Part shown: positions 42,325 to 62,183 of the stretch, one piece after another
How the letters are laid out: every line of letters begins with the position of its first letter
Numbering within the stretch: position 1 is the stretch's first letter
DNA from: a virus
Lineage: Duplodnaviria; Heunggongvirae; Uroviricota; Caudoviricetes
Length of the DNA stretch: 64,000 bases
Reading direction: 5' to 3' (one strand)
IMG/VR virus record: IMGVR_UViG_2579778842_000003
Notes under the pieces: model-generated
The model's input: only the letters and a program-made list of their open reading frames with translations
Database searches by the model: none
Told to the model about the DNA's origin: nothing
Position numbers and translations under genes: made by a program

Positions 42325-42765
42325 ATGGCCACATTATCTGATACAATAAAACCGAATAAAACATATCTTGAGGCGGTGCTGCGTACGGCGTTGTTAGGAA
42401 AGACAGAAGACGAATACGTTGATTTCTTCCTGTCAGGGCTACGCGGGCGATTACTGAAAAATCCCCGCCTGTACCGCAGTTATGGCCCATACTGGCCGGA
42501 AATTAAAAAATTATTACTGGAGCGCGGTTATGGTAATTTCGGTCGTCTCGTTGACCGTGACGTTCGCAAAATTTACCGTTATGACCGCCCGGCGCTGACA
42601 CTCATAGCCGCGACGCTCTACAGCCAGGAGCGTTTTGATAATGGTCAGATATACTCAGCCTGGCATTTACTGCCAGTGCCTGAAGAAGTTGACGACCAGG
42701 ACTATGAGTTTGAGTCTTACGATTTGGAAGTTGAAGCCTTGGCACAGGCTGGAGAGAAAACTTGA
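42325..42765 (+). CDS. ulx: Ulx
   Basis: 146 aa upstream of and overlapping lxc; synteny. Confidence 0.6.
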   Translation: MATLSDTIKPNKTYLEAVLRTALLGKTEDEYVDFFLSGLRGRLLKNPRLYRSYGPYWPEIKKLLLERGYGNFGRLVDRDVRKIYRYDRPALTLIAATLYSQERFDNGQIYSAWHLLPVPEEVDDQDYEFESYDLEVEALAQAGEKT

Positions 42766-43056: not shown

Positions 43057-44364
43057 TTACACTATATTCTTAACTATAAGGTTGGCGTCCTTCAAGGTGC
43101 CTAATGTTTCAATGTGGTTTTTTATCATTAATCTATTTGAGGCAATTATTGCAGGCCATCGTGTTTCCCAAGCTCTGTAAGCATACCAAGAAACTCCCCA
43201 ATTCCTTTCTTTACTCATATGACCCATCGAGTATTCAACTGCGTCTAAATATGTTTTTTCATACTTAGTATTGCTAACCTCTATGATGCTTCCAAAATAT
43301 ATAAGCCATTTTGCCAACTGTTCATATTGCTCCCACGCTCCGTTATTCCTTGTTAACTTTCTCTTTTTTTCTATTATCCTTTCGAAAAGAGAAACGACTT
43401 TATCATCATTCCAATCTAAACCTTCCGATATAATTGATGATATAATTTGATAAAATGAATCCTCTAATTTAAGATATTCATTTTTATAAGTATAAGCCCC
43501 CGAAACAACTTTTCTGATATTTTCGCGCGCTCTTTCAATGATGTCTTTAATGAGAGACATCTTATAACTTAATCGACTAAAGAAACAATCTATTTCTGTA
43601 TTGTCAATTACCCTTATACCAAAGCAATAGAAGTAATAATCCTTCATATCTTGACTTACTTTGTTGCGAGATATCAAAAAGATATTAGAGCACAGGGCAT
43701 TATTTTTCGAAAATTTTTTATAGTCATTTATAATTGCTTTAAGATTTGTGTCGCTTAAAGAATACCCTAATATCGCAACTGTATTTTCATGCAGCATCGT
43801 ACTAAGTTTTCGTGAAAAATAAGTATCGGAATTTATAAATCTGAAGTAATCATCTGAAGTGACAATCATATTTTTTGGCGAATCAATAGAGCCATGAACA
43901 TGATATATTTTCACCTTGGATGGATACTTTGGAATTGGCAGGCCGGGCGTGATAGACTGTACACTTTCATCTCCAACCAAGCATTCAGCCAACTTGTCAT
44001 AATTTGTTGTAATGACACGGAATGAGTTTTTTTGGAAAAAATCTTTTATATTTGATATGTCTTCTCCAAGTTGAATTGGAGATATGATGTCAACAATTTC
44101 ATCATAAATCGACTTACCCTCAATATTGAGCTTCAAAGATAGTATTTGTGCGGCTTCTTCAAGACTCAGTGCTGGTGGTTTATCATCAGGGAATAACGTG
44201 TCTTCCAACTTTTTGGCATTGTGAACTTTGCTGCAAACTTTTTTTAATAGTTCCTTCCACGTTGGAGCTTCACCGTTCGAGACTGCCTTTGAAAAGCCAG
44301 TCCCGGTAAATAGACAAAGCCTGCTTGTAGCGGCAGCGTATGCTAACTCAACATATTCGCTCAT
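43057..44364 (-). CDS. SIR2-like (sirtuin-fold) protein with uncharacterised C-terminal helical domain; candidate anti-phage NADase
   Basis: 435 aa. Motifs read directly: LFTGTGFS (GAGxS-like, residues 18-25), ITTNYD (residues 118-123), HVHGS (155-159) and ILGYSLSD, with N121/H157 spacing like ThsA-type SIR2. Gene is markedly AT-rich compared with its neighbours. Confidence 0.8.
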   Translation of the reverse strand: MSEYVELAYAAATSRLCLFTGTGFSKAVSNGEAPTWKELLKKVCSKVHNAKKLEDTLFPDDKPPALSLEEAAQILSLKLNIEGKSIYDEIVDIISPIQLGEDISNIKDFFQKNSFRVITTNYDKLAECLVGDESVQSITPGLPIPKYPSKVKIYHVHGSIDSPKNMIVTSDDYFRFINSDTYFSRKLSTMLHENTVAILGYSLSDTNLKAIINDYKKFSKNNALCSNIFLISRNKVSQDMKDYYFYCFGIRVIDNTEIDCFFSRLSYKMSLIKDIIERARENIRKVVSGAYTYKNEYLKLEDSFYQIISSIISEGLDWNDDKVVSLFERIIEKKRKLTRNNGAWEQYEQLAKWLIYFGSIIEVSNTKYEKTYLDAVEYSMGHMSKERNWGVSWYAYRAWETRWPAIIASNRLMIKNHIETLGTLKDANLIVKNIV

Positions 44365-44420: not shown

Positions 44421-45062
44421 TTATAGATAATTTCCTTTTCCAGTTAACTCCCCTTTAGGCACCCGTTTTTGTGCCAGTGTTTGGGTTCCGCGAATTATGT
44501 TAATCAGAGGGCTTAGTAACGATGATTCCTGGCGGGCATCAACTTCTCCTGCCATTGCCCTAATGTAGTCGGCGCTTGCAACGTTGTTATATTCCGTTGC
44601 GAAGCAGCATAACAACGTCAGAACGTGCTCTGTCGTTATTTCGCTCCAGTTGATGTTGAAAAATTCATCGCCTTTTTTGTCATGTTCGGAATCGAAGATG
44701 CTTTGGTGAAGGATGTATTTGCCGGATTCCTTGCGCGGTAACTTGATCGCTTTCTGGCGTTCCAATTCCTTGTAAATCTGCATCGCTTCAATCAGTACCG
44801 GTCTGCCGTTCATGAAGGGATCACGCAACCTTACACGCTGGCCAACTCGACCGGTAATAAAGCTGTTTTCCTCTTCCACCAGCACGATAAAACCCTTTTC
44901 CTCTTTTTCTCGCAATTCGCGCAGCAGCTGGAGTTCCATATCGCGGCGGCGTTCAGGGTAGCTGGTCCGCTCAGCCATTATCAGCTCATTGTTGATCCAT
45001 GCGGCAGTCATTGACGCCGGTTTGCCGACGCTCATCGAAACAACGCATATTTTCTTATCCAT
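44421..45062 (-). CDS. mat: Mat-like protein (particle maturation control)
   Basis: Synteny only (between ref and the res-mod position); start taken at MDKKICVV. Confidence 0.45.
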   Translation of the reverse strand: MDKKICVVSMSVGKPASMTAAWINNELIMAERTSYPERRRDMELQLLRELREKEEKGFIVLVEEENSFITGRVGQRVRLRDPFMNGRPVLIEAMQIYKELERQKAIKLPRKESGKYILHQSIFDSEHDKKGDEFFNINWSEITTEHVLTLLCCFATEYNNVASADYIRAMAGEVDARQESSLLSPLINIIRGTQTLAQKRVPKGELTGKGNYL

Positions 45063-45250
45063 AGCGCCCCTACAAAAAAGAAAAGCCACCAGCGGCGGCT
45101 TAGCAATACAACTGAAGGTAGCGCCCGGTACTCAGACTGTGCCGTCCATGGAATATTTGAAAAGGGATCCATCCGTACCGGGCGTGTGATGATTCTGACT
45201 GAAGTCACTTGTCAGTTGTCAATCATTTATCATTAAAAATAATATATTTA

Positions 45251-45926: not shown

Positions 45927-46033
45927 TAAAGTTGTTTATTTATCGCGAATCACATTTTTTCACTTCAGTACCTGTGTGCTATACTCCTTCTTGATTGATT
46001 GGATGCGGAATACAAACCCGCTCTTTTGTGCAG

Positions 46034-46059
46034 CCTGACTCCTTGCCAGGCTTTTTTTT
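46034..46059 (+). terminator. Plus-strand intrinsic terminator
   Basis: gcctg-actccttgc-caggc followed by T8. Confidence 0.5.
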
Positions 46060-46369
46060 ATTTCATCATGGAAGCTGTTAACGCTTTGGACCTTGCTGAA
46101 CTGATTGAGAGGGCTTTGTCAACGTGCCCCAAAAATTCGCCAAACTCAGACATCACTTTAGCAAAACCGCGCCGTGCTTCTTCCTCGGTGGCATTCATCA
46201 CGAAATGTTCAGCACCACGCATACTTTTGACAGGGAACGCAACGGATATTGAATCAATATCAGGCATTCTATCGCTCAGCTTTACAGTGACAATGACGGC
46301 TGGCGACTGAATATTAGTGCTTACAGACAGCACTACATATTTTCCGTCGATGTTGAAATCCTTTCTCAT
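46058..46369 (-). CDS. Hypothetical C1-controlled protein downstream of cre
   Basis: 103-aa ORF with a C1 operator about 20 nt upstream of its start. Confidence 0.5.
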   Translation of the reverse strand: MRKDFNIDGKYVVLSVSTNIQSPAVIVTVKLSDRMPDIDSISVAFPVKSMRGAEHFVMNATEEEARRGFAKVMSEFGEFLGHVDKALSISSARSKALTASMMK

Positions 46370-46385
46370 ATGTCACCATAAATAT

Positions 46386-46402
46386 CAAAGAATTAGAGCA
46401 AT
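46386..46402 (-). promoter_or_regulatory. C1 operator
   Basis: aaagaattagagcaat. Confidence 0.5.
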
Positions 46403-46419
46403 CATTTACGCGTTAATGG

Positions 46420-47451
46420 CTAATCGCCATCTTCCAGCAGGCGCACCATTGCCCCTGTTTCACTATCCAGGTTACGGATATAGTTCATGACAATATTTAC
46501 GTTGGTCCAGCCACCAGCTTGCATGATCTCCGGTATTGAAACTCCGGCACGGGCCATATCTCGCGCGGCTCCGACACGGGCACTGTGTCCAGACCAGGCC
46601 AGGTACCTCTGGCCAGAGTCATCCTTAGCCCCGTAAATCAATCGGTGAGTTGCTTCAAAAATCCCTTCCAGGGCGCGAGTTGATAGCTGGCTGGTGGGTG
46701 ATGGCGAGGCAACACCATTTTTTCTGACCCGGCAAAACAAGTAGTTATTCGGATCATCAGCCACACCAGAGACAGAAATCCATCGCTCGACCAGTTTAGT
46801 TACCCCCAGGCTAAGTGCCTTCTCTACACCCGCGGTACTAACCAGCGTTTTCGTTCTGCCAATATGGATTAACATTCTCCCACCGTCTGTACGTGAGATA
46901 TCTTTAACCCTGATCCTGGCAATTTCGGCTATACGTAACAGGGTGTTATAAGCGATCCCCAGAAATGCCAGATTACGTATGTCCTGGCAGCGATCGCTAT
47001 TTTCCATGAGTGAACGAACCTGGTCGAAATCAGTGCGTTCGAACGCCAATGCCTGTTTTGCACGTTCACCGGCATCAACGTTTTCTTTTCGAATCCGCCG
47101 CATGACCAGTGAAACAGCATTGCTGTCACTTGGTCGTGGCAGCCCGGACCGACGATGAAGCATGTTTAGCTGGCCCAAATGTTGCTGGATAGTTTTTACT
47201 GCCAGACCGCGCGCCTGAAGATATAGAAGATAATCGCGAACATCTTCAGGTTTTGCGGGAAACCATTTCCGGTTATTCAACTTGCACCATGCCGCCCATG
47301 ACCGGCAAACGGACAGAAGCATTTTCCAGGTATGCTCAGAAAACGCCTGGCGATCCCTGAACATGTCCATCAGGTTCTTGCGAACCTCATCACTCGTTGC
47401 ATCGACCGGCAATGCAGGCAAATTTTGGTGTACGGTCAGTAAATTGGACAT
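46420..47451 (-). CDS. cre: Cre tyrosine site-specific recombinase
   Basis: 343 aa, MSNLLTVHQNLPALPVDATSDEVRKNLMDMFRDRQAFSEHTWK..., recognisably P1 Cre; adjacent to loxP. Confidence 0.97.
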   Translation of the reverse strand: MSNLLTVHQNLPALPVDATSDEVRKNLMDMFRDRQAFSEHTWKMLLSVCRSWAAWCKLNNRKWFPAKPEDVRDYLLYLQARGLAVKTIQQHLGQLNMLHRRSGLPRPSDSNAVSLVMRRIRKENVDAGERAKQALAFERTDFDQVRSLMENSDRCQDIRNLAFLGIAYNTLLRIAEIARIRVKDISRTDGGRMLIHIGRTKTLVSTAGVEKALSLGVTKLVERWISVSGVADDPNNYLFCRVRKNGVASPSPTSQLSTRALEGIFEATHRLIYGAKDDSGQRYLAWSGHSARVGAARDMARAGVSIPEIMQAGGWTNVNIVMNYIRNLDSETGAMVRLLEDGD

Positions 47452-47458
47452 TTGACAC

Positions 47459-47680
47459 TCAGATAATGGTTTTAAGTAAAGTGTACAGGATCGGCTCTGC
47501 CTTTACCTGTTTATGGTTCTCGTCATAGAAACGCCAGCGACCGCGCGTGCGTTCTATTTTCTCTTCACCGCGCGATAATGACAGTTGACAACTATCACGA
47601 TCAAACCCTTTTGCCCGCCAGTAACCACGGTTTTTCTCAAGCTCAATATGAGTGGACACTTTAGCAGCTGAATATCCCAT
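47459..47680 (-). CDS. cra: Small protein between loxP and cre (cra-like)
   Basis: 73-aa ORF immediately upstream of cre; naming by synteny. Confidence 0.5.
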   Translation of the reverse strand: MGYSAAKVSTHIELEKNRGYWRAKGFDRDSCQLSLSRGEEKIERTRGRWRFYDENHKQVKAEPILYTLLKTII

Positions 47681-47777
47681 TTTTCACCTCTGATTGATTG
47701 GTGGTGCTAAGTGCGCTACGCGAAATCTAGAGCACAAACACTGCCAACATTTCGCAGATTTTACGTAGCGCAACCTT

Positions 47778-47797
47778 GATCAAATGATCAAGTGATC
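47778..47797. promoter_or_regulatory. Cluster of three GATC (Dam) sites in the cre promoter region
   Basis: tgatcaaatgatcaagtgatca: three TGATCA within 20 bp, about 75 bp from loxP. Confidence 0.5.
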
Positions 47798-47869
47798 ACT
47801 ATTTGACCTGATAAGGTATTGAACTGTATGGATTTACAGGTAAATTGATCATGTTCAATAACCCCTAAT

Positions 47870-47903
47870 ATAACTTCGTATAATGTATGCTATACGAAGT
47901 TAT
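47870..47903 (+). other. loxP: loxP recombination site
   Basis: Exact 34-bp ATAACTTCGTATA-ATGTATGC-TATACGAAGTTAT. Confidence 0.97.
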
Positions 47904-47946
47904 TAGGTCTGAAGAGGAGTTTACGTCCAGCTGCGCATAAAAATCA

Positions 47947-47963
47947 ATAATTATTAGAGCAAT
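47947..47963 (-). promoter_or_regulatory. C1 operator (immC, Op99 cluster)
   Basis: ataattattagagcaat. Confidence 0.55.
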
Positions 47964-48029
47964 AAATTTTGAGAGAAAAATCCCACTCCACCAGCCAAAA
48001 ACTGGATTGTTTTTCATAGTTGTTTGACA

Positions 48030-48046
48030 ATTGCTCTAATAAATTA
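48030..48046 (+). promoter_or_regulatory. C1 operator overlapping a rightward promoter (TTGACA at 48024-48029)
   Basis: attgctctaataaatta, 16/17 to consensus in forward orientation. Confidence 0.6.
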
Positions 48047-48284
48047 TAGTTTTGCCGCCGTTTCGTAATACGACTTTGGATTCACTATTTAATGTGTCTT
48101 CAGCGTTGTAGAGCGGCTCAGAAGGAAATGAGCAAACAGGGAAACCTTATACAACGGCATTACAGCTATGCATTGCTCATCTTACACACAGCGCAATGTT
48201 GTTAGATTACCCCAGCATGGATCATGGGTGAAACAGTAGGTCAGAGCTTCAGGCTCTGTGTTGTCAATACAGTGAGGCATAATT

Positions 48285-48494
48285 ATGGCTTTCATTCCAC
48301 CAACCATCGACGACGTTAGACATTGCTCTAACGCTTTATCTGTAGACCCCGCCGAAACCGACGCTGCCCGCGCCATTGCTGAACACTACTCAAAGATATC
48401 CAATCAGGAGTACCGCATCACCCAAGACGACCTGGATGATCTCACTGACACAATCGAATATCTCATGACCACTAACCAGCCAGACTCACAATAA
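48285..48494 (+). CDS. coi: Coi (C1 inactivator)
   Basis: 69 aa, directly upstream of c1. Confidence 0.8.
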   Translation: MAFIPPTIDDVRHCSNALSVDPAETDAARAIAEHYSKISNQEYRITQDDLDDLTDTIEYLMTTNQPDSQ

Positions 48495-48604
48495 ATGCAC
48501 TAATAAATCTATTATTTTCGTTGGATCCTTCTATAATGGTGGCCAACAACTCCCAGCGTAATCCGCTGTGAGTTGTTGGCCATGTCAATTCTGGAGGAGG
48601 ATCA

Positions 48605-49456
48605 ATGATAAATTATGTCTACGGCGAACAACTGTACCAGGAGTTCGTCAGTTTCAGGGATCTCTTTCTAAAAAAAGCTGTTGCACGCGCCCAACACGTT
48701 GATGCCGCCAGCGACGGTCGTCCTGTTCGCCCGGTTGTCGTTCTGCCGTTCAAAGAAACGGACAGCATTCAAGCTGAAATTGATAAATGGACTTTAATGG
48801 CGCGGGAACTGGAACAGTACCCAGACCTCAATATCCCAAAGACTATTTTATATCCAGTGCCTAACATCCTTCGCGGTGTGCGTAAGGTTACAACTTATCA
48901 GACAGAAGCTGTGAACAGCGTCAACATGACCGCTGGCCGCATTATTCATCTGATTGATAAGGACATTCGCATCCAGAAAAGCGCGGGGATCAATGAGCAC
49001 AGTGCGAAATACATAGAGAACCTGGAAGCAACAAAAGAGCTAATGAAGCAGTACCCGGAGGATGAAAAATTCCGTATGCGTGTACACGGCTTTAGCGAAA
49101 CAATGCTGCGCGTCCATTACATTTCCAGTAGCCCTAACTACAATGATGGTAAATCAGTTAGTTACCATGTGCCGCTGTGTGGTGTGTTTATCTGCGATGA
49201 AACTCTCCGTGATGGAATCATCATCAACGGTGAATTCGAGAAAGCAAAATTTAGCCTTTATGACTCTATAGAACCGATCATCTGCGACCGCTGGCCGCAG
49301 GCAAAAATATATCGCCTGGCAGATATTGAAAATGTAAAAAAACAAATTGCCATCACTCGCGAAGAGAAAAAGGTCAAATCAGCCGCATCAGTTACGCGCA
49401 GCCGTAAAACTAAGAAGGGGCAGCCAGTAAACGACAACCCCGAAAGCGCGCAATAG
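48605..49456 (+). CDS. c1: C1 master repressor
   Basis: 283 aa; position next to loxP and coi; cognate operator motifs found throughout the window. Confidence 0.9.
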   Translation: MINYVYGEQLYQEFVSFRDLFLKKAVARAQHVDAASDGRPVRPVVVLPFKETDSIQAEIDKWTLMARELEQYPDLNIPKTILYPVPNILRGVRKVTTYQTEAVNSVNMTAGRIIHLIDKDIRIQKSAGINEHSAKYIENLEATKELMKQYPEDEKFRMRVHGFSETMLRVHYISSSPNYNDGKSVSYHVPLCGVFICDETLRDGIIINGEFEKAKFSLYDSIEPIICDRWPQAKIYRLADIENVKKQIAITREEKKVKSAASVTRSRKTKKGQPVNDNPESAQ

Positions 49457-49480
49457 TTTCTATCCGGCATGGTCAATGAG

Positions 49481-50965
49481 TTATTCATTAAGCCATGCCA
49501 GAGCTTCATCAACCTGCGCTTCGTCTTCGACGCTAAGCACTTCATCCTGGGGAACATAATCCGCCAGCATAGCGAAACAATATGTATCCCAATGGTCTGG
49601 TGAGTGCAGGTTGAGTTTTTTCTTCATATCCTCCTTACTCATCACCTTCCATTGACCTGCGGAGTTAATCCCTACAGGGATTTTCGACGCTTCCTCAATA
49701 GTTTCATTACCCTTATCCAGTCTCATACGACCAGATTTTACGGCCTCTGCGGCTTGAACGTTGGCATAAGCACGTTTATCAAAGTACAGGCTCTTATCTT
49801 CACGGCTATGCATCTTTTTACCCCAGCGTATACGCTGTACGGTAATACCATAATACTCGTACATCAGATCCGCCGTTGCTTTACCCAGGCCATCGCCGTC
49901 TATCGCTATGGTGATATTTGGGAATCGCTCAGGATTACATTCTGCGAAAATTTTGGCGGCAAGCTGCGTTTCTGTAACGTCTGTGTATTCCAGCATTCGA
50001 TAGTTGATTACACGGCGTTTATTTCGCTGGCCGGACACCATCATGATATTGATAACGGACTTATCCCGTCCCGTACCACCAGCAACGTCCACACATGCAA
50101 GCCAGCCCCATCCTTTTGCAATCTTGACTTTCCGCCTCGTTGCACGTTCAACCTCATCACGTCCAAGAAGGAAGCCATCCTGTGATTTAGGGAATAGGCC
50201 GCGTACCTTAATCATGTACATAGGGTTATCACGCCCGCCGTACTCCGCCAGCTTCATTTTGATAAATGCTGGCGTTACCAGCGGTGATTCCTCACTGTTA
50301 AGCGTGATCGCCGTATAAACGCCATCAGGGTTACCAGGACGCTTGGCCAGTTTATGGTGAGTATCGTAGAAATAGCCGCTTGGGCGTGTAGGCTGTGACA
50401 GTAATAAGATGCGGTTATCCTGTCCGGTAAGAGCACCGGTGATGATACCGAAAGCTCTATCACTGACACCGGAGGCTTCATCGATAATATACAGAAGATG
50501 ATCTGCGTGTTCACCGGCGAGAGCTTCTTCACTTCCCAGACGAAAGCCCTTCGGTACTACAGTCCATACACCTTTACCAGTAACCTCATAGAAAGCGGTT
50601 TCTGTCAGAACAAAATAATCAGCAAGCCATGGAAAACGGCTGGTGGCAGTAGCCCAGTTTATCTTGATGTACTTGAAAATACCGGTCATTACCTGCTGAA
50701 TTTTGTTCGCAACGATAATGGCGCGGGCACCGGGATACATGATTATGAACAACATGATCATGATAGAAGTCATGTCTGATTTCCCGGTACCGTGACCAGA
50801 CGAAACAGATGTCTTGCTACCCTGTTCCTGCACAGACTCAATAATCAGATCCTGCTGCCAGGTAGGTGTTTTGCCGAACAAAACATCAGCGGCCGCAATC
50901 CAGTCATAACGATATAGCGCCACCAGCTCGCGCCAACGTGGATCCGTTACGCAACTTCTGGCCAT
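49481..50965 (-). CDS. pacB: Terminase large subunit PacB
   Basis: 494 aa; overlapping start with the pacA stop; terminase-like. Confidence 0.85.
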
Positions 50966-52158
50966 TAATCATCATCCCCGTATAGCTTGCGGGTAACTTC
51001 TTCGTCTTCCTCCTCGTCTTCGTCCAGGTCTTGTTCCAGCCATGGGTCGTTTGATACACCTTCAGTATCAACATCTCCATAACCGCCTGTATCAACGATA
51101 TCGGCGATTTCTTCCCTACGCTGCTCAATCCACAATGCGGCATCGGCGCGGCGGTTGGCGGCCCGTTCTCGCGCAACTTTATCCAGATCTTCAAGAGAAG
51201 GGCCACCGACGGCTGTTTGCCTTTCCTCATCATCGGTATTGGTCTTAGGAGCACGCAGATCGGCTTTGATTTGCTCCAGCATCAGGGGCGGAACTTTCCC
51301 ACCATGCGCCTCGATGAATTCAGCTGCTTCCAGCACTGACCAGTTATTTTCACGCTTTCGTTCGTATGCCAGCTTAACAATGCCAGCTTGCCCCATAGAC
51401 AAAGCGTGCTTTTCCGCCTCCCGGCTTTCTTTTCGATAGTTATTCCGGATGCTGTAAATGGTGTTGATCAGGCTGCTTATCTGCGCGGAACAGCTGTTTA
51501 GCATGCTCGCGATACGGTATTCAGGCGGAGTACCTTCATCATCGTCTTTTTGCTGATCGCGCATTTCCTGCACCAGGCGAATACACGTATCCCTGGCGTT
51601 CTCCAGCATAAGGAGATGAGAAAGAGACTTTTCAAGAAGAGTGGTTTCCAGAACATCGGCCCCGGACCGACGCAACATAGCGCGCGCGGCCTTCCGCGCT
51701 TCAACGTTATCTATCAGGTAATCGCCAGCTTCGAATTCAAAGCGTTCACCATCATCATCCAGGGTGTCGCGTTCCAGGCGATCACGTAAGGTCCGGTGGG
51801 CGCGGGTGATCACGTCATGATCATCTGAACGATCATTTATGCGCTTATTTTGGCGCTTCGCATTCTCGACTGCGGCACTGATAACGGCATTAACTCTCTG
51901 TTTTTCCGCTATTTCAGCCGCAATATGATCACCTGCATGTTGATCATTAGAGTGATCAATGATCATGCTTTTTAGTGGCTTCCTGACTGGCTTATTTGGC
52001 TTGCGGCTGTCCGCAGTCCTGGAGTCTTCTTTGAAGGCACGGAGATAACGACGTGCGGTATTAGGGTTAAGATTAAACTCGGCGGCATACTGTGCGATGG
52101 TGTAACCACCATCTCGCGCCAGGCGAGCAAAATTCTTCTTGTGATCGTCCCAGGTCAC
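50965..52158 (-). CDS. pacA: Terminase small/pac-recognition subunit PacA
   Basis: 397 aa; contains the pac site in its 5' region; acidic C-terminus. Confidence 0.85.
51805..51966. other. pac: pac packaging site (7 TGATCA/GATC elements in 3+4 arrangement)
   Basis: GATC at 51808, 51819, 51831 and at 51927, 51942, 51954, 51961, flanking about 90 bp; matches the described P1 pac architecture. Confidence 0.75.
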
Positions 52159-52243
52159 TTATGCTTCCTTTCGTAAAAACTCTTTTTGACGCGAGGGTAA
52201 CGAAAGTCACATGTCAAAAGGCCCGGAACGGGCAAGCAATCAA

Positions 52244-52696
52244 TCAGATACGTGCGGATGTGGCATTACCGTAATGACGGTGCTGACGGGCCACCTTATT
52301 GAAAAGTTGACGCGCCATTACCCAAGGCTGGTGCTCCCGGCGTTCCTTTTCGTCCTGCGTCATATAGAGTTCGTTCTGGAGTTTTTCATCAAACCGGCGC
52401 GGAGCGCGGCTACGGCGAAAGAATTCAGGATTCAGAGAGTGGATCTGAAATCTACGTGGGCGTGTACTGTCATCAATCAAAACAGACGAATACTTAGACA
52501 CAGCGATAGCCTTTAAGCGCAGATAAACATCGCGCTTATCGACATCCAGATGCGGGTATTCCTTTTCAAGAATTGCTGCGAGTTCTTTCGCTGATAGAAG
52601 AGATTTAGTGCGGATCATGTAATCCGCAATCTCGTACGATGTTATTCGTGAGTGATTTATTTCCATGAAGTGGCGTCCCTGCCAGTTAAGTAACAT
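52244..52696 (-). CDS. lpa: Lpa, late promoter activator
   Basis: 150 aa; C1 operator upstream; position next to pacA. Confidence 0.75.
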   Translation of the reverse strand: MLLNWQGRHFMEINHSRITSYEIADYMIRTKSLLSAKELAAILEKEYPHLDVDKRDVYLRLKAIAVSKYSSVLIDDSTRPRRFQIHSLNPEFFRRSRAPRRFDEKLQNELYMTQDEKERREHQPWVMARQLFNKVARQHRHYGNATSARI

Positions 52697-52766
52697 CCTG
52701 TCACCTACTGATTAGCCCATGTCAACTAATCAACGTGGAATATAATACCCTCGATTAAAGAAATAG

Positions 52767-52783
52767 CAATACATTAGAGCAAT
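52767..52783 (-). promoter_or_regulatory. C1 operator upstream of lpa
   Basis: caatacattagagcaat. Confidence 0.5.
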
Positions 52784-52784
52784 T

Positions 52785-53828
52785 TTATATAACGCTCGAC
52801 GAGTGACTTGTGATAGCGCCGACTCCAAGCGCGTAATCAAAGAACAATCGTTGATGCATCGCCAGCCTACCGTGCGTCTTCTCCCAATTATCGCGGTCAC
52901 GCTCAATATCACGCTGGCATGACTGGCACAGAGGAATTGCGTAAATGTCATGCGCGCATAATCGACTATGACGAACGATATAAGGCGTAATGTGAGCGCC
53001 AGCTCCCGCCGCTCCACACCCACAGCATGGACGGGAAGCAACAAAGTCCATGTACTCAGGTAATTTTAGCGATTGCAGTTTTGGTATTTTGAAATGCGCC
53101 ATGCCAGGGTCGGAGTCAACATCCACAGGGCATACTTTTGCACGCATCGGCGCGGCGCGTTCTTCCATCATCTGAACATATGCTGTAGCGCGATCGTCAT
53201 ACGGGCGAATATCCGCCTCTTTCAGAGGTCCGCTATCCTGCGTTGCGGCTTTCATCTTATTTATTGATATACGGCAAACTTCTTCCGGCATCAGGTGCAT
53301 CATGTTGCGCATGAAAGCCCACCAGCACAGTTCCTGAATACTTAGATCATGGCCATCTGAAAGCCCCATTTCCTGACGGGCGACATCCAGTATCCAGTTA
53401 ACGCGATTATTATGCAGCGTTTCTTTCAGCTCATTAAAACCACGCATCCGGTAATGGTTATCGTGATGCCAGCACAACAACACCGCGCTATTGTCTCGTT
53501 CTGCGTGGACAATATGGTTGTCACACCAGCTACGATCTGCGGCCTGGCATTGCCCCTCTTTCCTGCGCAACCACGCCACCAGCGCGTCAATTCCACCAAT
53601 ACGGCGAAACAGTTCATCGCTGTTAAAAAACGGCTGCAACGCCTCATTTGTTGCCATGGTTTGCTCGGTAACAACGAGGCCGTCTTCCATGTGCTCGATT
53701 AACTCGCGCGGCACCGGCTCCATAATAAATTTACGGCCAGCCTCCACCAGCTTTCTGACCTCCTGATCCACTTTGAACGTGGCGAGGCCAAGCTCTTTCT
53801 GTACAAAGGGAGTAATTACGGCTTTCAC
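52785..53828 (-). CDS. Post-doc protein (pdcB-like), Cys/His-rich
   Basis: 347 aa downstream of doc; CCGCG...H...C...H...CQSC cluster near the C-terminus. Confidence 0.5.
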
Positions 53829-53855
53829 ATCACACCTTTCATCACTGATTGGGCT

Positions 53856-54056
53856 TTATCTGCTGCCCGGCATTCTCTGTTTAAGCGCAACCATTTCCTG
53901 ACGGCATAACACAGCAATAGCGGTCCTGACTCCAATTTGCTTACCAACCAGGTATTGCTTTACCTTGCGGCGACTCACGCCATCAAGAAGCATCTTTAAC
54001 GCTTCACGGGACAATTTGTTGTATTTGCGTGCCATTAATCTACTCCGCAGAACCAT
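53856..54056 (-). CDS. Small basic protein downstream of doc (pdcA-like)
   Basis: 66-aa ORF; overlaps the doc 3' end, so the true start may be internal. Confidence 0.35.
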
Positions 54057-54420
54057 ACAATCTACGTAACGTGTCGGCGACAGAAGATACAGATATCTCT
54101 CCGGTCGCAGCCCCTACGGTAAGGTCTGCCAGTTCAGGTGAATCAAATACCTGCACCCCGTTACGGCGTAGAAATAACAGCGCACTGTTTAGCGCGGTAC
54201 GCTTATTGGCATCATTGAATATATGCCCTCTCGCTGTAGCCACCAGGTAGGTGGCGGAGACTTCGAAAAGGTCGGTGATCTCTTCGTAGGCAACTCTGGC
54301 CTGAACTCTCCCGATAATGGCCTCTGCCCTACCAGGATCTGACATTCCCGGCAGGCCGCCGTAGCGGTTTATATTCGCATCATGAAGCGCAATAAGTTCT
54401 TCCGGTGATATATGCCTCAT
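54040..54420 (-). CDS. doc: Doc toxin (Fic-fold kinase)
   Basis: 126 aa, [25 protein letters not shown]...; start overlaps the phd stop. Confidence 0.92.
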
Positions 54421-54641
54421 TATCGGTTAACCAGTTCCTTGTTGGTGGAGTCCAGGGTGTCAAACAGGGATGCAAATTCAGCATCCAGCGCCGCTTTTTT
54501 GTAGGCTTCGAAAGTAGCCTTGCTGACAATTACTGCTGGCTCACGGCCTCTGCGGGTGATTTCAACCTCTTCCCCGGCTTCAACATTGTTGAGCACTTCA
54601 GAAAGGTTGCCGCGCGCGGTACGGAAGTTAATGGATTGCAT
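54420..54641 (-). CDS. phd: Phd antitoxin
   Basis: 73 aa from [32 protein letters not shown]... Confidence 0.92.
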
Positions 54642-54713
54642 AAACACCTCGTGTACTCGTTATGTGTACACAATTATAAACTTCACAGGCATAAAGCACC
54701 AGCACTTTGCAGC

Positions 54714-55103
54714 TTAAATGACCGGACAATCATCAAACTCTCCACTCCGGGCATCATTGATGACATGAGTGATCACACCAAAAACAGCATTACTACCCGT
54801 GTAACCATCGTCATCTACTGGTAACGCCTCTTTCTTCCCGGTGCTTAAATCCTCCAGGTGCTGGCGCGGATACTTCCTGTATCTCTTTATGCGATATTCA
54901 CCCTCCATAGCGCACACAAGCAGAGAACCATCAACCGGAGTAAGCGAGGAATCAACCACCAGCAAAGCACCCTGCAATATTCCCTCACGGTGATGGCTAT
55001 CAGTTGCCCGCATGAAGTAGGTTGCTGATGGATGCCTGATTAGTTGCTGATCAAGAGAAATTCGGCTTTCAACATAATCCGCCGCAGGAGAAGGGAAGCC
55101 CAT
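54714..55103 (-). CDS. humD: HumD (UmuD' homolog)
   Basis: 129 aa; S24 peptidase-like; LexA box immediately upstream. Confidence 0.8.
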   Translation of the reverse strand: MGFPSPAADYVESRISLDQQLIRHPSATYFMRATDSHHREGILQGALLVVDSSLTPVDGSLLVCAMEGEYRIKRYRKYPRQHLEDLSTGKKEALPVDDDGYTGSNAVFGVITHVINDARSGEFDDCPVI

Positions 55104-55122
55104 AGCGTTTTCACCTCAATAA

Positions 55123-55142
55123 TACTGTTCATTTATACAGTA
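55123..55142. promoter_or_regulatory. LexA (SOS) box
   Basis: tactgttcatttatacagta, perfect CTGT-N8-ACAG palindrome 20 bp upstream of humD. Confidence 0.75.
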
Positions 55143-55550
55143 TACATTAAAGAGACACCTTTGGTGCAAACGCGTTACGTACATCAACCACCGCTGATGA
55201 TTTTGTGCTCTTTGCTACTATTCATCACCAACGGATCAGCGTAACCTCGTTGCCAATCAGTTAATAAGGAGATGCCGCAGCGACCGGATCATCAACAAGA
55301 AATTGTTGCTGAATTTTCCTCAAGGGATGAGATGAATCTCTTCTCATTAAAGCAGGAAGAAAGGGATCGCGTCGAAGTGTCTCCAACTCTCGACCACAAC
55401 CGGATGAACCTGGCCCAACTCGCCTAGTACAGCAAAGAATTAGAGATGTCTATTGCCCGACTTGAAAACGAAAAAGCCGCTATCCAAGTCCAGCACGAAG
55501 TAGTTCTGAACCGGATTAGAGAAATGCAAAACGATAACAGGGGATTTTGA

Positions 55551-55907
55551 ATGGCTAAAGTCGAGTACCATCGCGATCGCGGTAATTACCTGGAAATATA
55601 CGATCATGAATCTCTTAACGATATCAACGATGCGTTATATGAATACTGTGAAAAAACGAGCATCACAGATGCACCTGATGCATTTGTCGAGCTGCCGGTA
55701 TATCTCCGCGACATCTATGCAATACGAACACCGCCCGTATCGGTGATTCACATTGGCTATGTCCGCCTGTCCATCGAAGAAGATGAAGATCGTTATATCG
55801 TGCGCCACTATACATTGGACAGAAAAGAACTTCCTAATGAATGGAACATGAGTAATTTCTACAACGGTGAATATGGCTTAAAATCCGCTAATAATTTACG
55901 GTCATAA
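55551..55907 (+). CDS. Hypothetical protein (lxr/hot neighbourhood)
   Basis: 118-aa ORF divergent from humD. Confidence 0.45.
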   Translation: MAKVEYHRDRGNYLEIYDHESLNDINDALYEYCEKTSITDAPDAFVELPVYLRDIYAIRTPPVSVIHIGYVRLSIEEDEDRYIVRHYTLDRKELPNEWNMSNFYNGEYGLKSANNLRS

Positions 55908-56982
55908 TCTATACAGGCATGTATAACAACAACGAGCCTATTAGCTGTCAACAACATTATTTTCTCAAATAAGAAAAAGCAGAAAACAAATTGTTTAAGA
56001 TCACAAATTGTGGCCTTGATGGAGGAGGGAGGCTTATTGGCTATGGCTAAAAATCAAATTAGACACTTCATGTTGCTGTAGCTCATCAAGATCCGAGGCC
56101 ACAAAACCTTTTCCGAAAAACTTCACAAGTAACTCACTAGCTGCATCATTGTCACCTATTACACGAAAGTCATACGGCAACGTCGCAAGTTGACGATGTA
56201 ATCCTGCTGAGAAAGTCGAATCTAACAGCGCCCAGAATTCCCACCGCAGGATAATACTCGCCTCTTAATACTGTATATATGTTGTTACGATATGTTTTTC
56301 TGTCTCTAAAAAAAGATGTTAATAGAATGCTAACCATTGAAGGGGATAAAAATATACAATTCCAACAAACGTTATTTTTAACAATTTTTTTCTTTGCGTT
56401 GACTTTCCCTGACACCTTGTCTGACCGAAGGTGCGCGAAAGCCACTTTTTCCTTCCTGAGTTATCCACAAAGTTATGCACTTGCAAGAGGGCCATTTTCT
56501 ACATATTGTGGTGGCTAACAGATGAAATGAATGTAGATTAATTGAAGATAAGGAGAAAATTTGAGATGCAATCATGACGTTAATAGATAGGGTCTGCATT
56601 ACAGACCCCACCCGCATCAAGGAATTAGCCGTTCCCTGATGTTTTTCCGAAAACATGTGCCGTAAGCTCACGTTAACGACTTTCATTCACCGAATCCAAC
56701 TATATAGGGGTTGGGTTTCTACGTCAACGTGAGCAAGTGCACCTTTACATTTGACAAGGAACCACCTGAATGAACGCTTTTTTTCAGTTCCTGAGTGCAT
56801 TTTTAGATGCGCCTGTTATTAGCCAGATTCTGGCTATTATCCTCATCATCGTTTTGATTTTGCTTTTAAGGTCAGTAAAAAATGGAATTATGCACTGGCT
56901 TACTTAATGTTTCAGTGAAACATTAAAATATCCTTGATGAGGAAACAATCATTTTCTGTATGTGCTGGTGGGCACCTGTAGT

Positions 56983-57345
56983 TCAGCTTTCGTTGGCATT
57001 TAACTTCGTCTTTGCTTTCTCCACCAGCAACTTCCAGATGCCTATTTCATTAGCAGCCGCCTTGATGGCGGCATAAAAAGCATCTTGCTGATCGTAACGC
57101 TGGATCTGTTTTTTCAGTTTTGCCTCCACCAATTTAATTTCATTACGTGCTTTCTGAATCCGCATCACCGCCCGGTTACGTCTGTTCTTGTATAGCGTGT
57201 TAATCTCTGACAATTGCTTTAATTTACCAGCCTGACTGCGGATTATCGCCTCCCTGGCTTCTGCCGTGCGTCTCATCTGATCTCTTAAGAGTTCACCGTT
57301 TTCGATAATTCTTTCAAGGTGTTTGATGTGATCTGCAACTCTCAT
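56983..57345 (-). CDS. Coiled-coil protein
   Basis: 120 aa; overlapping start with the upstream gene. Confidence 0.5.
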   Translation of the reverse strand: MRVADHIKHLERIIENGELLRDQMRRTAEAREAIIRSQAGKLKQLSEINTLYKNRRNRAVMRIQKARNEIKLVEAKLKKQIQRYDQQDAFYAAIKAAANEIGIWKLLVEKAKTKLNANES

Positions 57346-58016
57346 ACTTCACCCTCGCTTGTATCACCAGCGTCCACCAACGACAATAAAGCCCTGGCCA
57401 TCTTATGAACCAACAGTGCATCAATAATGCCAAGCGTATGCCCCGGCTTAATGTTTAATGCTGCCTCAAGATGACACCTTTCCAGACCGCTTTTCTCGGC
57501 TTGTTTATGATGATATGGCGTAATAACGTCGCCCAAAACACGGCTAATTCTTTCTCGTAATTGCTGGGTGCCAGCACACTTGATCGCTGTATCGTGGAGA
57601 CGGTTAACCAGTTCGCGATAAACATGCGGTTTAATGCGGATACGTTCACCGGTGACGCCCTTTCCTGGCCCTGGCACCGAACTATCCGGAATATCCGGAT
57701 AGTTGCCAGCCTCGTAAGCTACCCGCAGCCAGTGCATGAATGTTTCAGTAGACACACAACCACAGTCCACATCGATTTTTCCGCGTTGCTGTTCCAGCCA
57801 CTGCTCAAAATTCAATCTACACGTATTACTTTCATGTTGCTCTTTTTGTCTTAAGGCCAGCACCTGTTGGGCCAGTTCCAGAACGATACCGGGTGACGCT
57901 AACCTCTCAAATTCCAATAAATAGTTTGCGTCAGGATGACAAGTAGCCTCGCCTGCAAAAAATACCAATTGCTGTAAGTATGCTGTCGTTAGAGTAGTCA
58001 TTTCTTTTTGCGCCAT
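57342..58016 (-). CDS. Hypothetical protein
   Basis: 224 aa; operon context. Confidence 0.55.
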   Translation of the reverse strand: MAQKEMTTLTTAYLQQLVFFAGEATCHPDANYLLEFERLASPGIVLELAQQVLALRQKEQHESNTCRLNFEQWLEQQRGKIDVDCGCVSTETFMHWLRVAYEAGNYPDIPDSSVPGPGKGVTGERIRIKPHVYRELVNRLHDTAIKCAGTQQLRERISRVLGDVITPYHHKQAEKSGLERCHLEAALNIKPGHTLGIIDALLVHKMARALLSLVDAGDTSEGEV

Positions 58017-58372
58017 TTCTTTTCACATTCCTTAGTCCATTTTTCAATGTTCATTTTGGCAATATCAGTCATTCCATCACCTAAGAAATACTTTTTCCGG
58101 TACGTCTTGCACTTAAACCACACTACAACAGCCACCAGCCAGAAAATAAAAGGCCATACAGCAATACCAACGACAGCCGCGATAAAGCCCAATAGCCATA
58201 AATGAAGCTCTCCAACTTCTGTTTCCGGCAATATTCTTAAAGAATTAAACAGCAGGCTGAACGAATGGTCGTATGCATTGGCAGTATAAGACATGCAATC
58301 CATATAATTAAAGTCATAGCCTGCGGCTGCCGCCCATAATGGGCGGTCAAGAAAATGTTTTAGTGTCATCAT
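57998..58372 (-). CDS. Membrane protein
   Basis: 124 aa; TM helix (LWLLGFIAAVVGIAVWPFIFWLVAVVVWF) and Lys-rich tail. Confidence 0.5.
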   Translation of the reverse strand: MMTLKHFLDRPLWAAAAGYDFNYMDCMSYTANAYDHSFSLLFNSLRILPETEVGELHLWLLGFIAAVVGIAVWPFIFWLVAVVVWFKCKTYRKKYFLGDGMTDIAKMNIEKWTKECEKKWRKKK

Positions 58373-58378
58373 ATAAAT

Positions 58379-58672
58379 TTAAGGTTCAGACCAGTTATCT
58401 TCAATAGCAATGCTTAATCTTTGTAGCCATTCTGCTAATTTCAGCATTGCTTCTCTTTCGCTTAAACCACGAGGAAAATCATCAAGCGAAATTGTTGGCT
58501 TGAATCCCCCGCAATTATCCATTTCAACTGTCAGATTTTGTTCCAGCACGGTATTTCTTACGCGGCTATTGTGCCGGAGCAAATATACTGAGCATGATTT
58601 ATTGGTTTTGTGGTCTAGCTTATATTCGGTAAGTATCATCTGGCTTTTGCCATGATTATTACCTCTCCACAT
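58379..58672 (-). CDS. Hypothetical protein
   Basis: Start taken at MWRGNNHG after a GAGG RBS; track ORF extends to 58768. Confidence 0.4.
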   Translation of the reverse strand: MWRGNNHGKSQMILTEYKLDHKTNKSCSVYLLRHNSRVRNTVLEQNLTVEMDNCGGFKPTISLDDFPRGLSEREAMLKLAEWLQRLSIAIEDNWSEP

Positions 58673-58850
58673 ACTTACCTCACTTAATAAAACAACTCCA
58701 TGCGTAGTTGATGATTTTTTCCCACGTAATATAAATCTGCACTCCGGCAGTAAAACCAAAGCCAACAATTGCTGAAAAAATCAAAACATTTACTTTTGAC
58801 ATTATAAACTTTCTCTCGGTGTCGTAGGTGATAGCACCATAATTGATAAT

Positions 58851-59084
58851 TTAGTGAGTTAGCAGTTCCATTTTTTTGATGATTTCCGCATGAGCATCAT
58901 CGTTATCAACACTTAGCTCGTTTAATGCTTCTCGCACTACATCAACTTCTTCAGGCTGAAAGAAGTCGTCGCGGTAATCACCAAATAGAACCGAAACCAG
59001 CCTGCTACCAGCAACATCAAGATTGGCGCTAACAGGTGGCTCTTTGCCATCCTCAAATTCGACTACAAAAGTTAATTTTCCCAT
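58851..59084 (-). CDS. Small acidic protein
   Basis: 77 aa. Confidence 0.45.
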   Translation of the reverse strand: MGKLTFVVEFEDGKEPPVSANLDVAGSRLVSVLFGDYRDDFFQPEEVDVVREALNELSVDNDDAHAEIIKKMELLTH

Positions 59085-59160
59085 CGTTACCCCCAGAAGA
59101 TAAAAATAGCGGCAATCGCCATAGCTACGCCTACAATCGCAAATGCTTCAGGCCAGCTTA

Positions 59161-59421
59161 TTACCTCACCTCCAGTCTCCATACCGCCTGACCAATCCGG
59201 CTGGCATGGGTATCTTTGGATACTGTTCCATCTTTAGCCAGCTCCATAAGAATTTTGCGCAAATCTGCCGAACGCCATTCTTCATCAGGAAATTCCTTCT
59301 CCATTGCCAACCGCAGATTCCAGGTTGCTATCGTGAATGGATATTCCCCGCCGAGAGCTTTCTCTTGCAGGGCAGCACGGGAACGTATCACCTGCAAAAC
59401 CTTCTCTTTTACATCCATCAT
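59161..59421 (-). CDS. Hypothetical protein
   Basis: 86 aa from MMDVKEKVL; ATG overlaps the upstream stop (ATGA). Confidence 0.45.
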   Translation of the reverse strand: MMDVKEKVLQVIRSRAALQEKALGGEYPFTIATWNLRLAMEKEFPDEEWRSADLRKILMELAKDGTVSKDTHASRIGQAVWRLEVR

Positions 59422-60605
59422 TTTGCCTCCTGCGGCGGTTCTGGTAGCGGCATCCAGTGTGATGGTATCCACGACGCACCAGGTATTACCCACCCATCAT
59501 TAGCGTCAGGATGCCCCGGGATGTAAGTCGCCCATTTCATTCGCCAGTCACCTTTCCTGTCAAACTCCCTGGCAACAAGAACGGCTGTTTTGGTATCCGG
59601 CATTCGCTCACTACAGCTTATCCAACTATCCGGAATTACCGGAAAGTTGCGCATTGCGACCTTTAATGCCTCATAGAAGCACTCTTTCAAATTGTTGAAC
59701 TGACACCCATTTAGAGGACCGTGTTCAGTCAGCATGTTGTGTAATTTCCATGCCGCGTCGTTTACTGCGTTGGATGACATGGGAGGCAACTTGTAAGCCT
59801 GGCTTACAGGCTCGGAACCATGAAGAATGGCGGCGCGGCAGGCATCCTCTACGCCCTTAACTGCATCTGCGCAGTAGTTATAGCGATTGCATTCCACTAA
59901 CTTCTGCTTGAGATTTTCAATTGCTTGTGCGACATCAGCCTGTATTGGTGGAACGGCTGTCTGCTGCTCTCGAACGTCATTAGTCGCTATCGGTTCTGCT
60001 GCCAACTGACTGGCATATTTGTTAATGGTAACGATAAGCTCTTGCTCAGCCTCATCCAGACAATCACCGATACCTCGTCTGTCGCCGTCAAAATCATCGA
60101 AATCAGCACGAACTCTGGCAAACTTCAGGATTGCGGACAACACCTCACCAGGAATTACCGGAGAGTTGGTTGACGTTTCCGCAATTTCCCGAAAATTATT
60201 GGTTGACGCATTCGCGTTTTTCCGAAAGTTTCCGGCATGAAGCATAGCCGCGCGGCAGGCGTTCCAGCCTCTCACCTCTGCAATAGCGGCAACAGCATCG
60301 ACCGCGTACATGCTAAGAGGGTTAGGCATTGGTTTTTCTTCCGGTACTACTGGCGCTGGAGGGGCAGTGTAAAGCTGGTGCGTTCCATCAGGTAGCGAGT
60401 GACCCACATACTCACCGACCCCGTCAATACACATGCCCCCATCTTCAACAATGCATTCCGCTACAGGCTCTGCTTCCAGTGATGCCAGCGCAATCCGTGC
60501 CAGCTCTTCCGCTTCTTCTGCTGGCAGTACAACGTTGCTACCAGGTCCGTATGTTTCGCGCCACTCCTTGATTGTCAGCAGTCGCTCTTTGGTAATAGTG
60601 ATCAT
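59418..60605 (-). CDS. DUF551-like phage protein
   Basis: 395 aa; C-terminal Trp-rich motif ending WMPLPEPP. Confidence 0.55.
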   Translation of the reverse strand: MITITKERLLTIKEWRETYGPGSNVVLPAEEAEELARIALASLEAEPVAECIVEDGGMCIDGVGEYVGHSLPDGTHQLYTAPPAPVVPEEKPMPNPLSMYAVDAVAAIAEVRGWNACRAAMLHAGNFRKNANASTNNFREIAETSTNSPVIPGEVLSAILKFARVRADFDDFDGDRRGIGDCLDEAEQELIVTINKYASQLAAEPIATNDVREQQTAVPPIQADVAQAIENLKQKLVECNRYNYCADAVKGVEDACRAAILHGSEPVSQAYKLPPMSSNAVNDAAWKLHNMLTEHGPLNGCQFNNLKECFYEALKVAMRNFPVIPDSWISCSERMPDTKTAVLVAREFDRKGDWRMKWATYIPGHPDANDGWVIPGASWIPSHWMPLPEPPQEAK

Positions 60606-61117
60606 GCCGCGTTTCCTTCTTTCTTATTAACAATTACACCGTCATATATTTCATTAAGGTGCCCTCTCAACTCCATGCGCCTTAATGCAGATAACATGTA
60701 ATCGCATTCAACCTGCTTATTCCCAATAAAAGGTTTATCTTCAGGGTTACCCCAACAGCAATTCCCCTTGGGCCATCCATGTACTTTCCGTACTCTTCCG
60801 TTAACAACGTGAAGTAATCCCCAGCCAGGAGGTAAATCCTCAATTGAAATAATTCCCGGCTCACTAATAAAGAATCGCCAGTCGCCCATGCCAAGTGAGG
60901 GATTTTTACGGAAACGCTTTTTTCTATCTGCCAACAAATCAGCACGAGAACACTTCGCCTCTATCAGGCATGATGCTGAATTTCTGAATCCCATAGCATC
61001 TGGCTGTTCTCCGGTACTGGTTACAGCTATAAAGCGGTCATGAAAACAAACCTTGAACCCGTTGCGCTTAAGGAACTTGTACGCAATCTGACAGAGTTCG
61101 CGGTGTGTTAACGCCAT
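60602..61117 (-). CDS. Putative PD-(D/E)xK-family nuclease
   Basis: Start at MALTHRELCQ; motifs ...QPDAMGF...CLIEAKCSRADL (D...E-x-K). Confidence 0.45.
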   Translation of the reverse strand: MALTHRELCQIAYKFLKRNGFKVCFHDRFIAVTSTGEQPDAMGFRNSASCLIEAKCSRADLLADRKKRFRKNPSLGMGDWRFFISEPGIISIEDLPPGWGLLHVVNGRVRKVHGWPKGNCCWGNPEDKPFIGNKQVECDYMLSALRRMELRGHLNEIYDGVIVNKKEGNAA

Positions 61118-61118
61118 A

Positions 61119-61751: not shown

Positions 61752-61987
61752 TGGTTGCCTCCTTGGCGGAGTTGCGCTGCGATGCATGAAAAAAAAGACT
61801 CCCGAGTGTGACAGTTAAGAGCTGGTGCGAACGCCGCGTTAAGAACGGCGGCATCACAGCCGTCATCAATATAGAGCGCAATTTTTTTCTCCAGGCGCGC
61901 TTTGGCTTCCTGCAACTGCATACCCCGGCACGCACGCGGGATATAATCAGCAATTTGAGCGATAGCTTTTTCGTTCTGTTTAAACAT
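61748..61987 (-). CDS. Small hypothetical protein
   Basis: 79 aa; ATG overlaps the upstream stop (ATGTTTAA). Confidence 0.45.
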   Translation of the reverse strand: MFKQNEKAIAQIADYIPRACRGMQLQEAKARLEKKIALYIDDGCDAAVLNAAFAPALNCHTRESFFSCIAAQLRQGGNQ

Positions 61988-62183
61988 GCTTCACCTCGAT
62001 AGGCTTGATGGTGTCTAACAGCAGTCGGCGGCGCGTATTTTCTGCAAAATGGCGGCGCCCAGTTTCTTTGTGGTAAAACTCGTTTTTGCCGACGACCCAC
62101 ATCCGCTCTGTTTGGTGCAGTTTTTTTACCTTCGGGCCATCTTTGGTGATCACGGTACCGGTATGGGTTTTTACGATTGTCAT
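61980..62183 (-). CDS. Small hypothetical protein
   Basis: 67 aa; overlaps neighbours on both sides. Confidence 0.45.
   Translation of the reverse strand: MTIVKTHTGTVITKDGPKVKKLHQTERMWVVGKNEFYHKETGRRHFAENTRRRLLLDTIKPIEVKHV

Follow-up and report, generated by a model that had tools for sequence, protein, structure and literature searches.

A probable native cre–cra–loxP–imcA–imcB–coi–c1 control region in 64 kb of P1-like phage-plasmid DNA

Background

The region at loxP/immC has already been described for P1 and P7. Cre recombines the P1 loxP site, which leads to cyclisation of incoming DNA and to resolution of plasmid dimers. Sternberg et al. (J Mol Biol 187:197) reportedly found in 1986 that P1 cre has several promoters and that its expression is regulated by DNA methylation, and the methylation sensitivity, with its direction, is said to have been assigned to the distal promoter pR1/P3cre. 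The C1 repressor binds P1 operators that follow a 17-bp asymmetric consensus, ATTGCTCTAATAAATTT; transcription of coi and c1 comes from the promoter P1coi, which C1 represses, Pc1 is subject to autoregulation via Oc1ab, and Coi inactivates C1 (PMC8546580). The genes cra, cre, coi and imcB are not needed for P1 lytic growth (PMC10695390).

Here we compare with these systems the 604 bp at 47681-48284 of a 64,000-nucleotide DNA (the whole stretch analysed, called the window below), which an earlier note had read as the P1 loxP/immC control region. The region fixes the orientation and identity of the element and provides precise landmarks, namely loxP, five C1 operators, a LexA box and four Dam sites; it has little significance beyond correct annotation.

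Element identity and gene layout

Judged from its sequence, 47681-48284 very probably (we would say about 90%) belongs to a P1-like phage-plasmid (Punavirus, IncY-type) and is its native cre–cra–loxP–imcA–imcB–coi–c1 control region. All three segments of the window are 96-99% identical to P1-like phages and IncY plasmids, with P1 synteny, and the presence of a C4 antisense RNA is consistent with membership in Punavirus. In a Megablast search of phage records with 47400-48650, phiW39 and Salmonella phage SJ46 were 99.2% identical to the query, and P1 and P7 98-99.5%. Since matches to P1-like phages and IncY plasmids extend over the whole window on either side of loxP, we read the window as a P1-like phage-plasmid. 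Its closest relatives differ by segment (MH422554 for 1-25000, RCS47 and SJ46 for 25001-46000, SJ46 for 46001-64000), so that the element appears to be a mosaic of P1-like lineages. A tRNA scan of the 64-kb window returned no tRNA genes, and Pfam gave no matches for Cra, C8 and the ORFs at 42325-42765 and 44421-45089.

Features of P1 were placed on the window via AF234172, which runs in the opposite direction, by subtracting the P1 position from 47887 (start of the record) or from 142687 (end of the record). Motifs were compared in a four-way alignment of the window, P1, P7 and phiW39. For conservation, a scan of IMG/VR for lox arms yielded 101 loci, and the 96 of these with a single canonical loxP served as the sample. 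The curated GenBank records of P1 and P7 annotate the same features homologously, among them the Dam sites where cre is regulated and the C1 operators toward c1, which bears out the main reading of the earlier note; in the alignment with P1 and P7 that it had proposed as a check, all mapped stretches are identical to P1 except for base 47948 in Oc1e. The genes are as follows.

46420-47451, minus strand: cre, tyrosine recombinase, 343 aa (ORF)
47459-47680, minus strand: cra, cre-associated ORF, 73 aa (ORF)
48092-48205, plus strand: imcA, 37 aa (ORF and P1 annotation)
48224-48319, plus strand: imcB, 31 aa, overlapping the start of coi (ORF and P1 annotation)
48285-48494, plus strand: coi, C1 inactivator, 69 aa (ORF and P1 annotation)
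48605-49456, plus strand: c1, primary repressor, 283 aa (ORF)

Next after c1 come pacB and pacA, on the minus strand. The order cre, cra, loxP, imcA, imcB, coi, c1, pacB, pacA is that of P1 (AF234172/NC_005856; X03453). The imcA and imcB genes are separate, which is the P1 arrangement; in P7 they form a fused imcAB (ImcAB/Rgc), which results from AGG in place of the TAG stop at 48203-48205.

The loxP site and Cre

47870-47903, plus strand: loxP, ATAACTTCGTATA-ATGTATGC-TATACGAAGTTAT (exact match)

The site had been called canonical, and it matches loxP at 34 of 34 positions on the plus strand, with two 13-bp inverted repeats (ATAACTTCGTATA) flanking an 8-bp asymmetric spacer (ATGTATGC). It is the sole match in the window even when three mismatches are allowed, and 100 shuffles gave none. 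Beside it lies an intact cre gene, whose product departs from that of P1 at residues 67, 249 and 252 (E67K, A249S and A252P), the remaining residues being identical. The residues that we take to be catalytic (R173, E176, K201, H289, R292, W315 and Y324) are unchanged, and the sequence predicts an intact recombinase. Residues 249 and 252 are naturally polymorphic: among IMG/VR loci with a readable cre, positions 67/249/252 are E/A/A (the P1 type) in 29, E/A/S in 12, E/S/S in 7, E/S/P in 7 and K/S/P, as here, in 1.

Spacer-variant lox sites with canonical arms were seen once each among loci L038, L073, L081, L096 and L031: ATGTTCGC, ATGCATGC, ATGAACGC and ATGTGTGT. L031 carries three lox sites in about 200 bp and may be engineered. 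Three IMG/VR loci with a canonical loxP have non-P1 flanks.

Clustered GATC sites and the cre promoters

47777-47782, 47785-47790 and 47793-47798, unstranded: three TGATCA (Dam GATC) with 8-bp spacing, TGATCAAA TGATCAAG TGATCA (motif scan)
47846-47851, unstranded: fourth TGATCA (Dam site 1), just 3' of the P2coi -10 (motif scan, P1 and P7 annotation)
47847-47850, 47786-47789 and 47778-47781, unstranded: GATC cores annotated as Dam sites in P1 (mapped from AF234172)
47758-47791, minus strand: promoter pR1/P3cre (AF234172 and X03453 annotation; sequence identical to P1)
47758-47763, minus strand: -10 of pR1/P3cre, TAAAAT (homology to P1)
47778-47783 and 47786-47791, minus strand: alternative -35 hexamers of pR1/P3cre, TTGATC (X03453, AF234172)
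about 47575-47604, minus strand: pR2/P2cre, cre promoter inside cra (homology to P1 annotation)
about 47463-47487, minus strand: pR3/P1cre, cre promoter inside cra (homology to P1 annotation)

Three TGATCA sites on the cre side are present as had been claimed; the interval 47778-47797 given for them is that of the GATC cores, and the hexamers span 47777-47798. The fourth, at 47846-47851, had been overlooked. When the 36 sites of the window are placed at random, three TGATCA fall within 22 bp in only 0.13% of cases (p ~0.001); three bare GATC within 20 bp turn up in about 39% of random placements in 64 kb and are unremarkable. The P7 record annotates the three clustered GATC of the window as Dam sites 2-4, and the four Dam sites of P7 (AF503408, AY751747; 37-40, 90-93, 98-101 and 106-109) have the layout of the window.

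Reference P1 has GGTC at 47794-47797 and therefore two clustered Dam sites against the three of the window, whereas P7 and phiW39 have GATC there, as in the window. The string containing the GATC triple is identical in 78 of the 96 related loci and shifted by one base in 3 more; at the third GATC, the P1-type GGTC occurs in 2/96 and GTTC in 1/96, and one 8-bp unit is missing in 5/96. The fourth GATC is kept in 78/96 loci, with AATC in 12/96. The layout of four sites, at -92, -84, -76 and -23 from loxP, is found at the window's positions in 66 loci and shifted by one base in 3 more. The third GATC is thus a common polymorphism, in which three GATC are the P7-type majority state and laboratory P1 is of the minority type; since it is missing or deleted in about 8 of the 96 relatives and in laboratory P1, it is dispensable. 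For studies of cre regulation that take P1 as the reference, it is of minor note that laboratory P1 is atypical at this site.

Sternberg's record, X03453, gives two alternative -35 hexamers for pR1, both TTGATC, and a GATC lies within each of these candidates at positions homologous to P1 and P7. As both candidates are TTGATC, Dam methylation would act on the -35 region of pR1/P3cre. Canonical sigma-70 geometry was not found for this promoter, the spacers being 14 or 22 bp, and the same is true of P1 itself; given these spacers, either GATC may sit in the true -35 of pR1.

C1 operators, P1coi and Pc1

47947-47963, minus strand: operator Oc1e (former Op99e), ATTGCTCTAATAATTAT (consensus match and P1 annotation)
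48001-48018, minus strand: Arg-box-like sequence, TATGAAAAACAATCCAGT (comparison with PMC2409434)
48024-48053, plus strand: promoter P1coi (former P99d), -35 TTGACA at 48024-48029, -10 region at 48045-48053 (P1 annotation)
48030-48046, plus strand: operator Oc1d (former Op99d), ATTGCTCTAATAAATTA (consensus match and P1 annotation)
48322-48338, plus strand: operator Oc1c (former Op99c), inside coi, ATTGCTCTAACGCTTTA (mapped from P1 annotation)
48494-48510, plus strand: Oc1a of the bivalent operator Oc1ab (consensus match and P1 annotation)
48505-48521, minus strand: Oc1b of the bivalent operator Oc1ab (consensus match and P1 annotation)
48494-48537, plus strand: promoter Pc1, -10 TATAAT at 48532-48537, overlapped by Oc1ab (P1 annotation)

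The consensus ATTGCTCTAATAAATTT, with at most three mismatches, has nine matches in the window against 0.41 expected by chance. At least two operator copies had been claimed on the c1 side, and both hold, Oc1e with two mismatches and Oc1d with one; Oc1c, Oc1a and Oc1b, which lie just past the range that had been examined, were missed. Oc1d and Oc1e occupy positions homologous to Op99d and Op99e, which were defined by experiment in P1, the cognate c1 gene is present, and we regard them as predicted C1 binding sites. One of the copies had been described as overlapping a TTGACA; this hexamer, at 48024-48029, in fact abuts Oc1d without any base in common. The spacer of P1coi is filled by Oc1d, through which the imcA-imcB-coi-c1 transcript is shut off in P1. 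The annotated -10 of P1coi (AGTTTT) is poor. Among the 96 loci, Oc1d together with the P1coi -35 is identical in 80 and Oc1c in 77; at Oc1e, the allele of the window (T at 47948) is found in 13, and G is the majority base, in 73.

The Arg-box-like sequence at 48001-48018 is kept in 81/96 loci. Its P1 counterpart, at position 94669 and 97 bp from loxP, has A at position 7 and C at position 10 (PMC2409434). We rejected it as an accessory site for ArgR/PepA, the P1 sequence showing no ArgR binding and PepA/ArgR having no effect on Cre-lox recombination (PMC2409434). A hairpin with a 7-bp stem and a T-rich tail at 48314-48333 encloses Oc1c in coi, and its occurrence is at chance level (1 against 1.2 expected).

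Predicted promoters facing each other across loxP

47819-47846, plus strand: P2coi, predicted, -35 TTGAAC, -10 TAAATT, reading through loxP toward imcA-imcB-coi-c1 (P1 annotation)
47822-47841, unstranded: LexA box, core CTGTATGGATTTACAG at 47824-47839, in the P2coi spacer (P1 and P7 annotation)
47918-47947, minus strand: P4cre, predicted, -35 TTGATT at 47942-47947, -10 TAAACT at 47918-47923, reading through loxP toward cra-cre (P1 annotation)

The division made in the earlier note, with cre-side elements for cre and c1-side elements for c1, is at odds with the P1 annotation. In that annotation Oc1e, the operator closest to loxP, serves P4cre, and the LexA box of P2coi sits on the cre side; neither P4cre nor P2coi with its LexA box had been reported. 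Both promoters are predictions in the P1 record ('may control expression of cra and cre'), and a strict sigma-70 consensus scan of 47400-48700 called no promoter, so that the promoter assignments given here rest on homology to the P1 annotation. The P4cre sequence is identical to P1, and Oc1e is located at its -35. The LexA box has the palindrome CTGT-N8-ACAG at the site annotated in P1 and P7, and its core, CTGTATGGATTTACAG, is one of two CTGTAT-N6-ACAG sites in the window against 0.12 expected; it has more than three mismatches to the 20-bp consensus. The box is kept in 82/96 loci, and P2coi with the LexA box is identical in 81/96.

In this arrangement, P4cre next to Oc1e would read through loxP toward cra-cre, P2coi with the LexA box in its spacer would read through loxP toward coi-c1, and each side of loxP would carry control elements for the genes on the opposite side. 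C1 would then restrict cre as well, and coi expression would receive input from the SOS response. Estimated from the -10 positions in the annotation, the starts of P2coi and P4cre are about 58 bp from each other. One could imagine that Cre at loxP, or collision or antisense pairing of the read-through transcripts, couples recombinase occupancy to the expression of coi/c1 and cre, the number of 8-bp TGATCAAN units (two or three in natural isolates) tuning a Dam-sensitive input. We consider such coupling improbable; the sequence is compatible with the scheme and does not demand it.

Alternative readings

The earlier note had presented loxP as a landmark of the element boundary. A physical boundary here would be a prophage or insertion junction, or else an engineered lox cassette or vector contamination; exact loxP is frequent in vectors, L031 with its three lox sites looks engineered, and so do two Lactococcus phage records that match the lox segment only. 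To this we give hardly any credence, because P1-like DNA continues unbroken on both flanks of loxP through the whole 64-kb window, the native flanks (cra-cre and imcA-imcB-coi-c1) are present, and the 604 bp occur in 702 of 5426 complete E. coli genomes, nearly always on plasmids of ~95 kb. Among complete E. coli genomes, 826 of the 849 places with this sequence are on plasmids, and it is found in 706 PLSDB plasmids, mostly of Escherichia and Salmonella. By convention, the coordinates of the P1 map start at loxP (AF234172), which is the site of cyclisation and dimer resolution and no element end. A further degenerate operator had been proposed at about 47722-47740, and the string in question, aaatctagagcacaa, does exist at 47723-47737. 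Read as a sixth C1 operator controlling cra and cre, it would have in its favour the operator core GCTCTA on the minus strand and a location between pR1 and the cra start codon. It matches the consensus at just 9 of 17 positions, the best register having 8/17 mismatches, and 1994 17-mers of the window do as well or better. The core (TAGAGC on the plus strand) hinges on A47729; P1, P7 and phiW39 have G there, and the window's version of the core is found in none of the 96 related IMG/VR loci. Moreover, 47723-47737 differs from P1 at four positions, and no operator is annotated at this place in the record of either P1 or P7. A sixth operator is very unlikely, and the motif is a chance resemblance, no better than expected at random, created by one private SNP. 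Dropping both the boundary reading of loxP and the spurious sixth operator avoids mis-annotation.

SeqA binds clustered hemimethylated GATC sites, and it might bind the cluster on the cre side just after replication, leaving recognition of the -35 by RNA polymerase unaltered; the replication cycle, in which dimers are formed, would then set the timing of cre expression or of access to the region. The TGATCA triple is not a random arrangement, three to four close GATC sites are kept in most relatives, and the poor spacing of the pR1 hexamers (14 and 22 bp) means that a pure -35 effect is not obviously enough. We nevertheless hold binding by SeqA to be the less likely course, at odds of a few to one against, since the 8-bp spacing of the GATC sites does not equal one helical turn, and the published interpretation, to go by the title of the Sternberg 1986 paper, is Dam-dependent promoter regulation. 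The native P1-type control region, in which methylation would act at pR1/P3cre, remains the reading that we prefer.

Comparison with P1, P7 and phiW39

Identical in the window and P1 are loxP, Oc1d with the P1coi -35, P4cre, P2coi with the LexA box, the pR1 -10, both TTGATC hexamers, Oc1c and Oc1a. P1 differs at four positions in 47729-47736 and at one base of Oc1e (47948). P7 has its LexA site at 46-65, matching the window, and the same operators, with a few residue changes in each of C1, Cre and Cra. At the nucleotide level, phiW39 (AY751748) differs from the window in having G at 47729, A at 47754, T at 47865, G at 47869 and G at 47948.

The closest sequences for the region are phiW39, Salmonella phage SJ46 and NZ_CP091040.1. 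The last of these, E. coli W25K plasmid unnamed3 (IncY, 97,720 bp, from a pig in China), is the sole 100% match to the 604 bp of 47681-48284, and it is not the best match for larger segments of the window.

Besides the changes in Cre, Cra differs from that of P1 by T5A and L12I and ImcA by T27A, and Coi has A62T relative to P1, P7 and phiW39. C1 departs from P1 C1 at residue 193 alone, the position at which the reference record is that of the c1.100 mutant.

Other features of the window

A hok/sok-type toxin-antitoxin module lies at 228-552 on the minus strand, downstream of repL, with an Rfam sok match of 113.9 bits at 378-552 and a 51-aa Hok-like ORF at 228-383. On the P1 map, reference P1 is not known to have hok/sok at this position. 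Several P1-like relatives begin to match the window only from about 205-847.

Between the ORF adjoining ref and darB, a 435-aa SIR2-like protein is encoded at 43057-44364 on the minus strand (Pfam SIR2_2, 1.1e-23; PADLOC PDC-S25, 1.1e-26; ThsA-like, 1.8e-17). The P1 gene order has the res-mod type III restriction system at this position (PMC10695390). The sequence suggests that the SIR2-like protein is likely to be swapped anti-phage defence cargo.

Three GATC within 23 bp (2635-2657) lie directly upstream of a near-consensus C1 operator at 2606-2622 on the minus strand (one mismatch), which precedes a KilA-like ORF (1736-2536) and repL. With 2606-2657, the window has a second instance of clustered Dam sites beside a predicted C1-controlled promoter. 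In pacA there are six TGATCA over 51807-51965, in two groups starting at 51807 and 51818, and at 51926, 51941, 51953 and 51960; these make up the methylation-controlled packaging site pac of P1 (Sternberg and Coulby 1990).

A strong LexA box, TACTGTTCATTTATACAGTA, is found at 55123-55142. It deviates from the 20-bp consensus at three positions, a match for which chance predicts no occurrence, and comes far nearer to the consensus than the box by loxP. We assume that it probably belongs to a LexA-regulated P1 gene (lxr/humD region). The landmarks of immI are all on the minus strand, with the C4 antisense RNA at 4000-4085, its a1/b1 targets at 4154-4206 and a C1 operator at 4267-4283.
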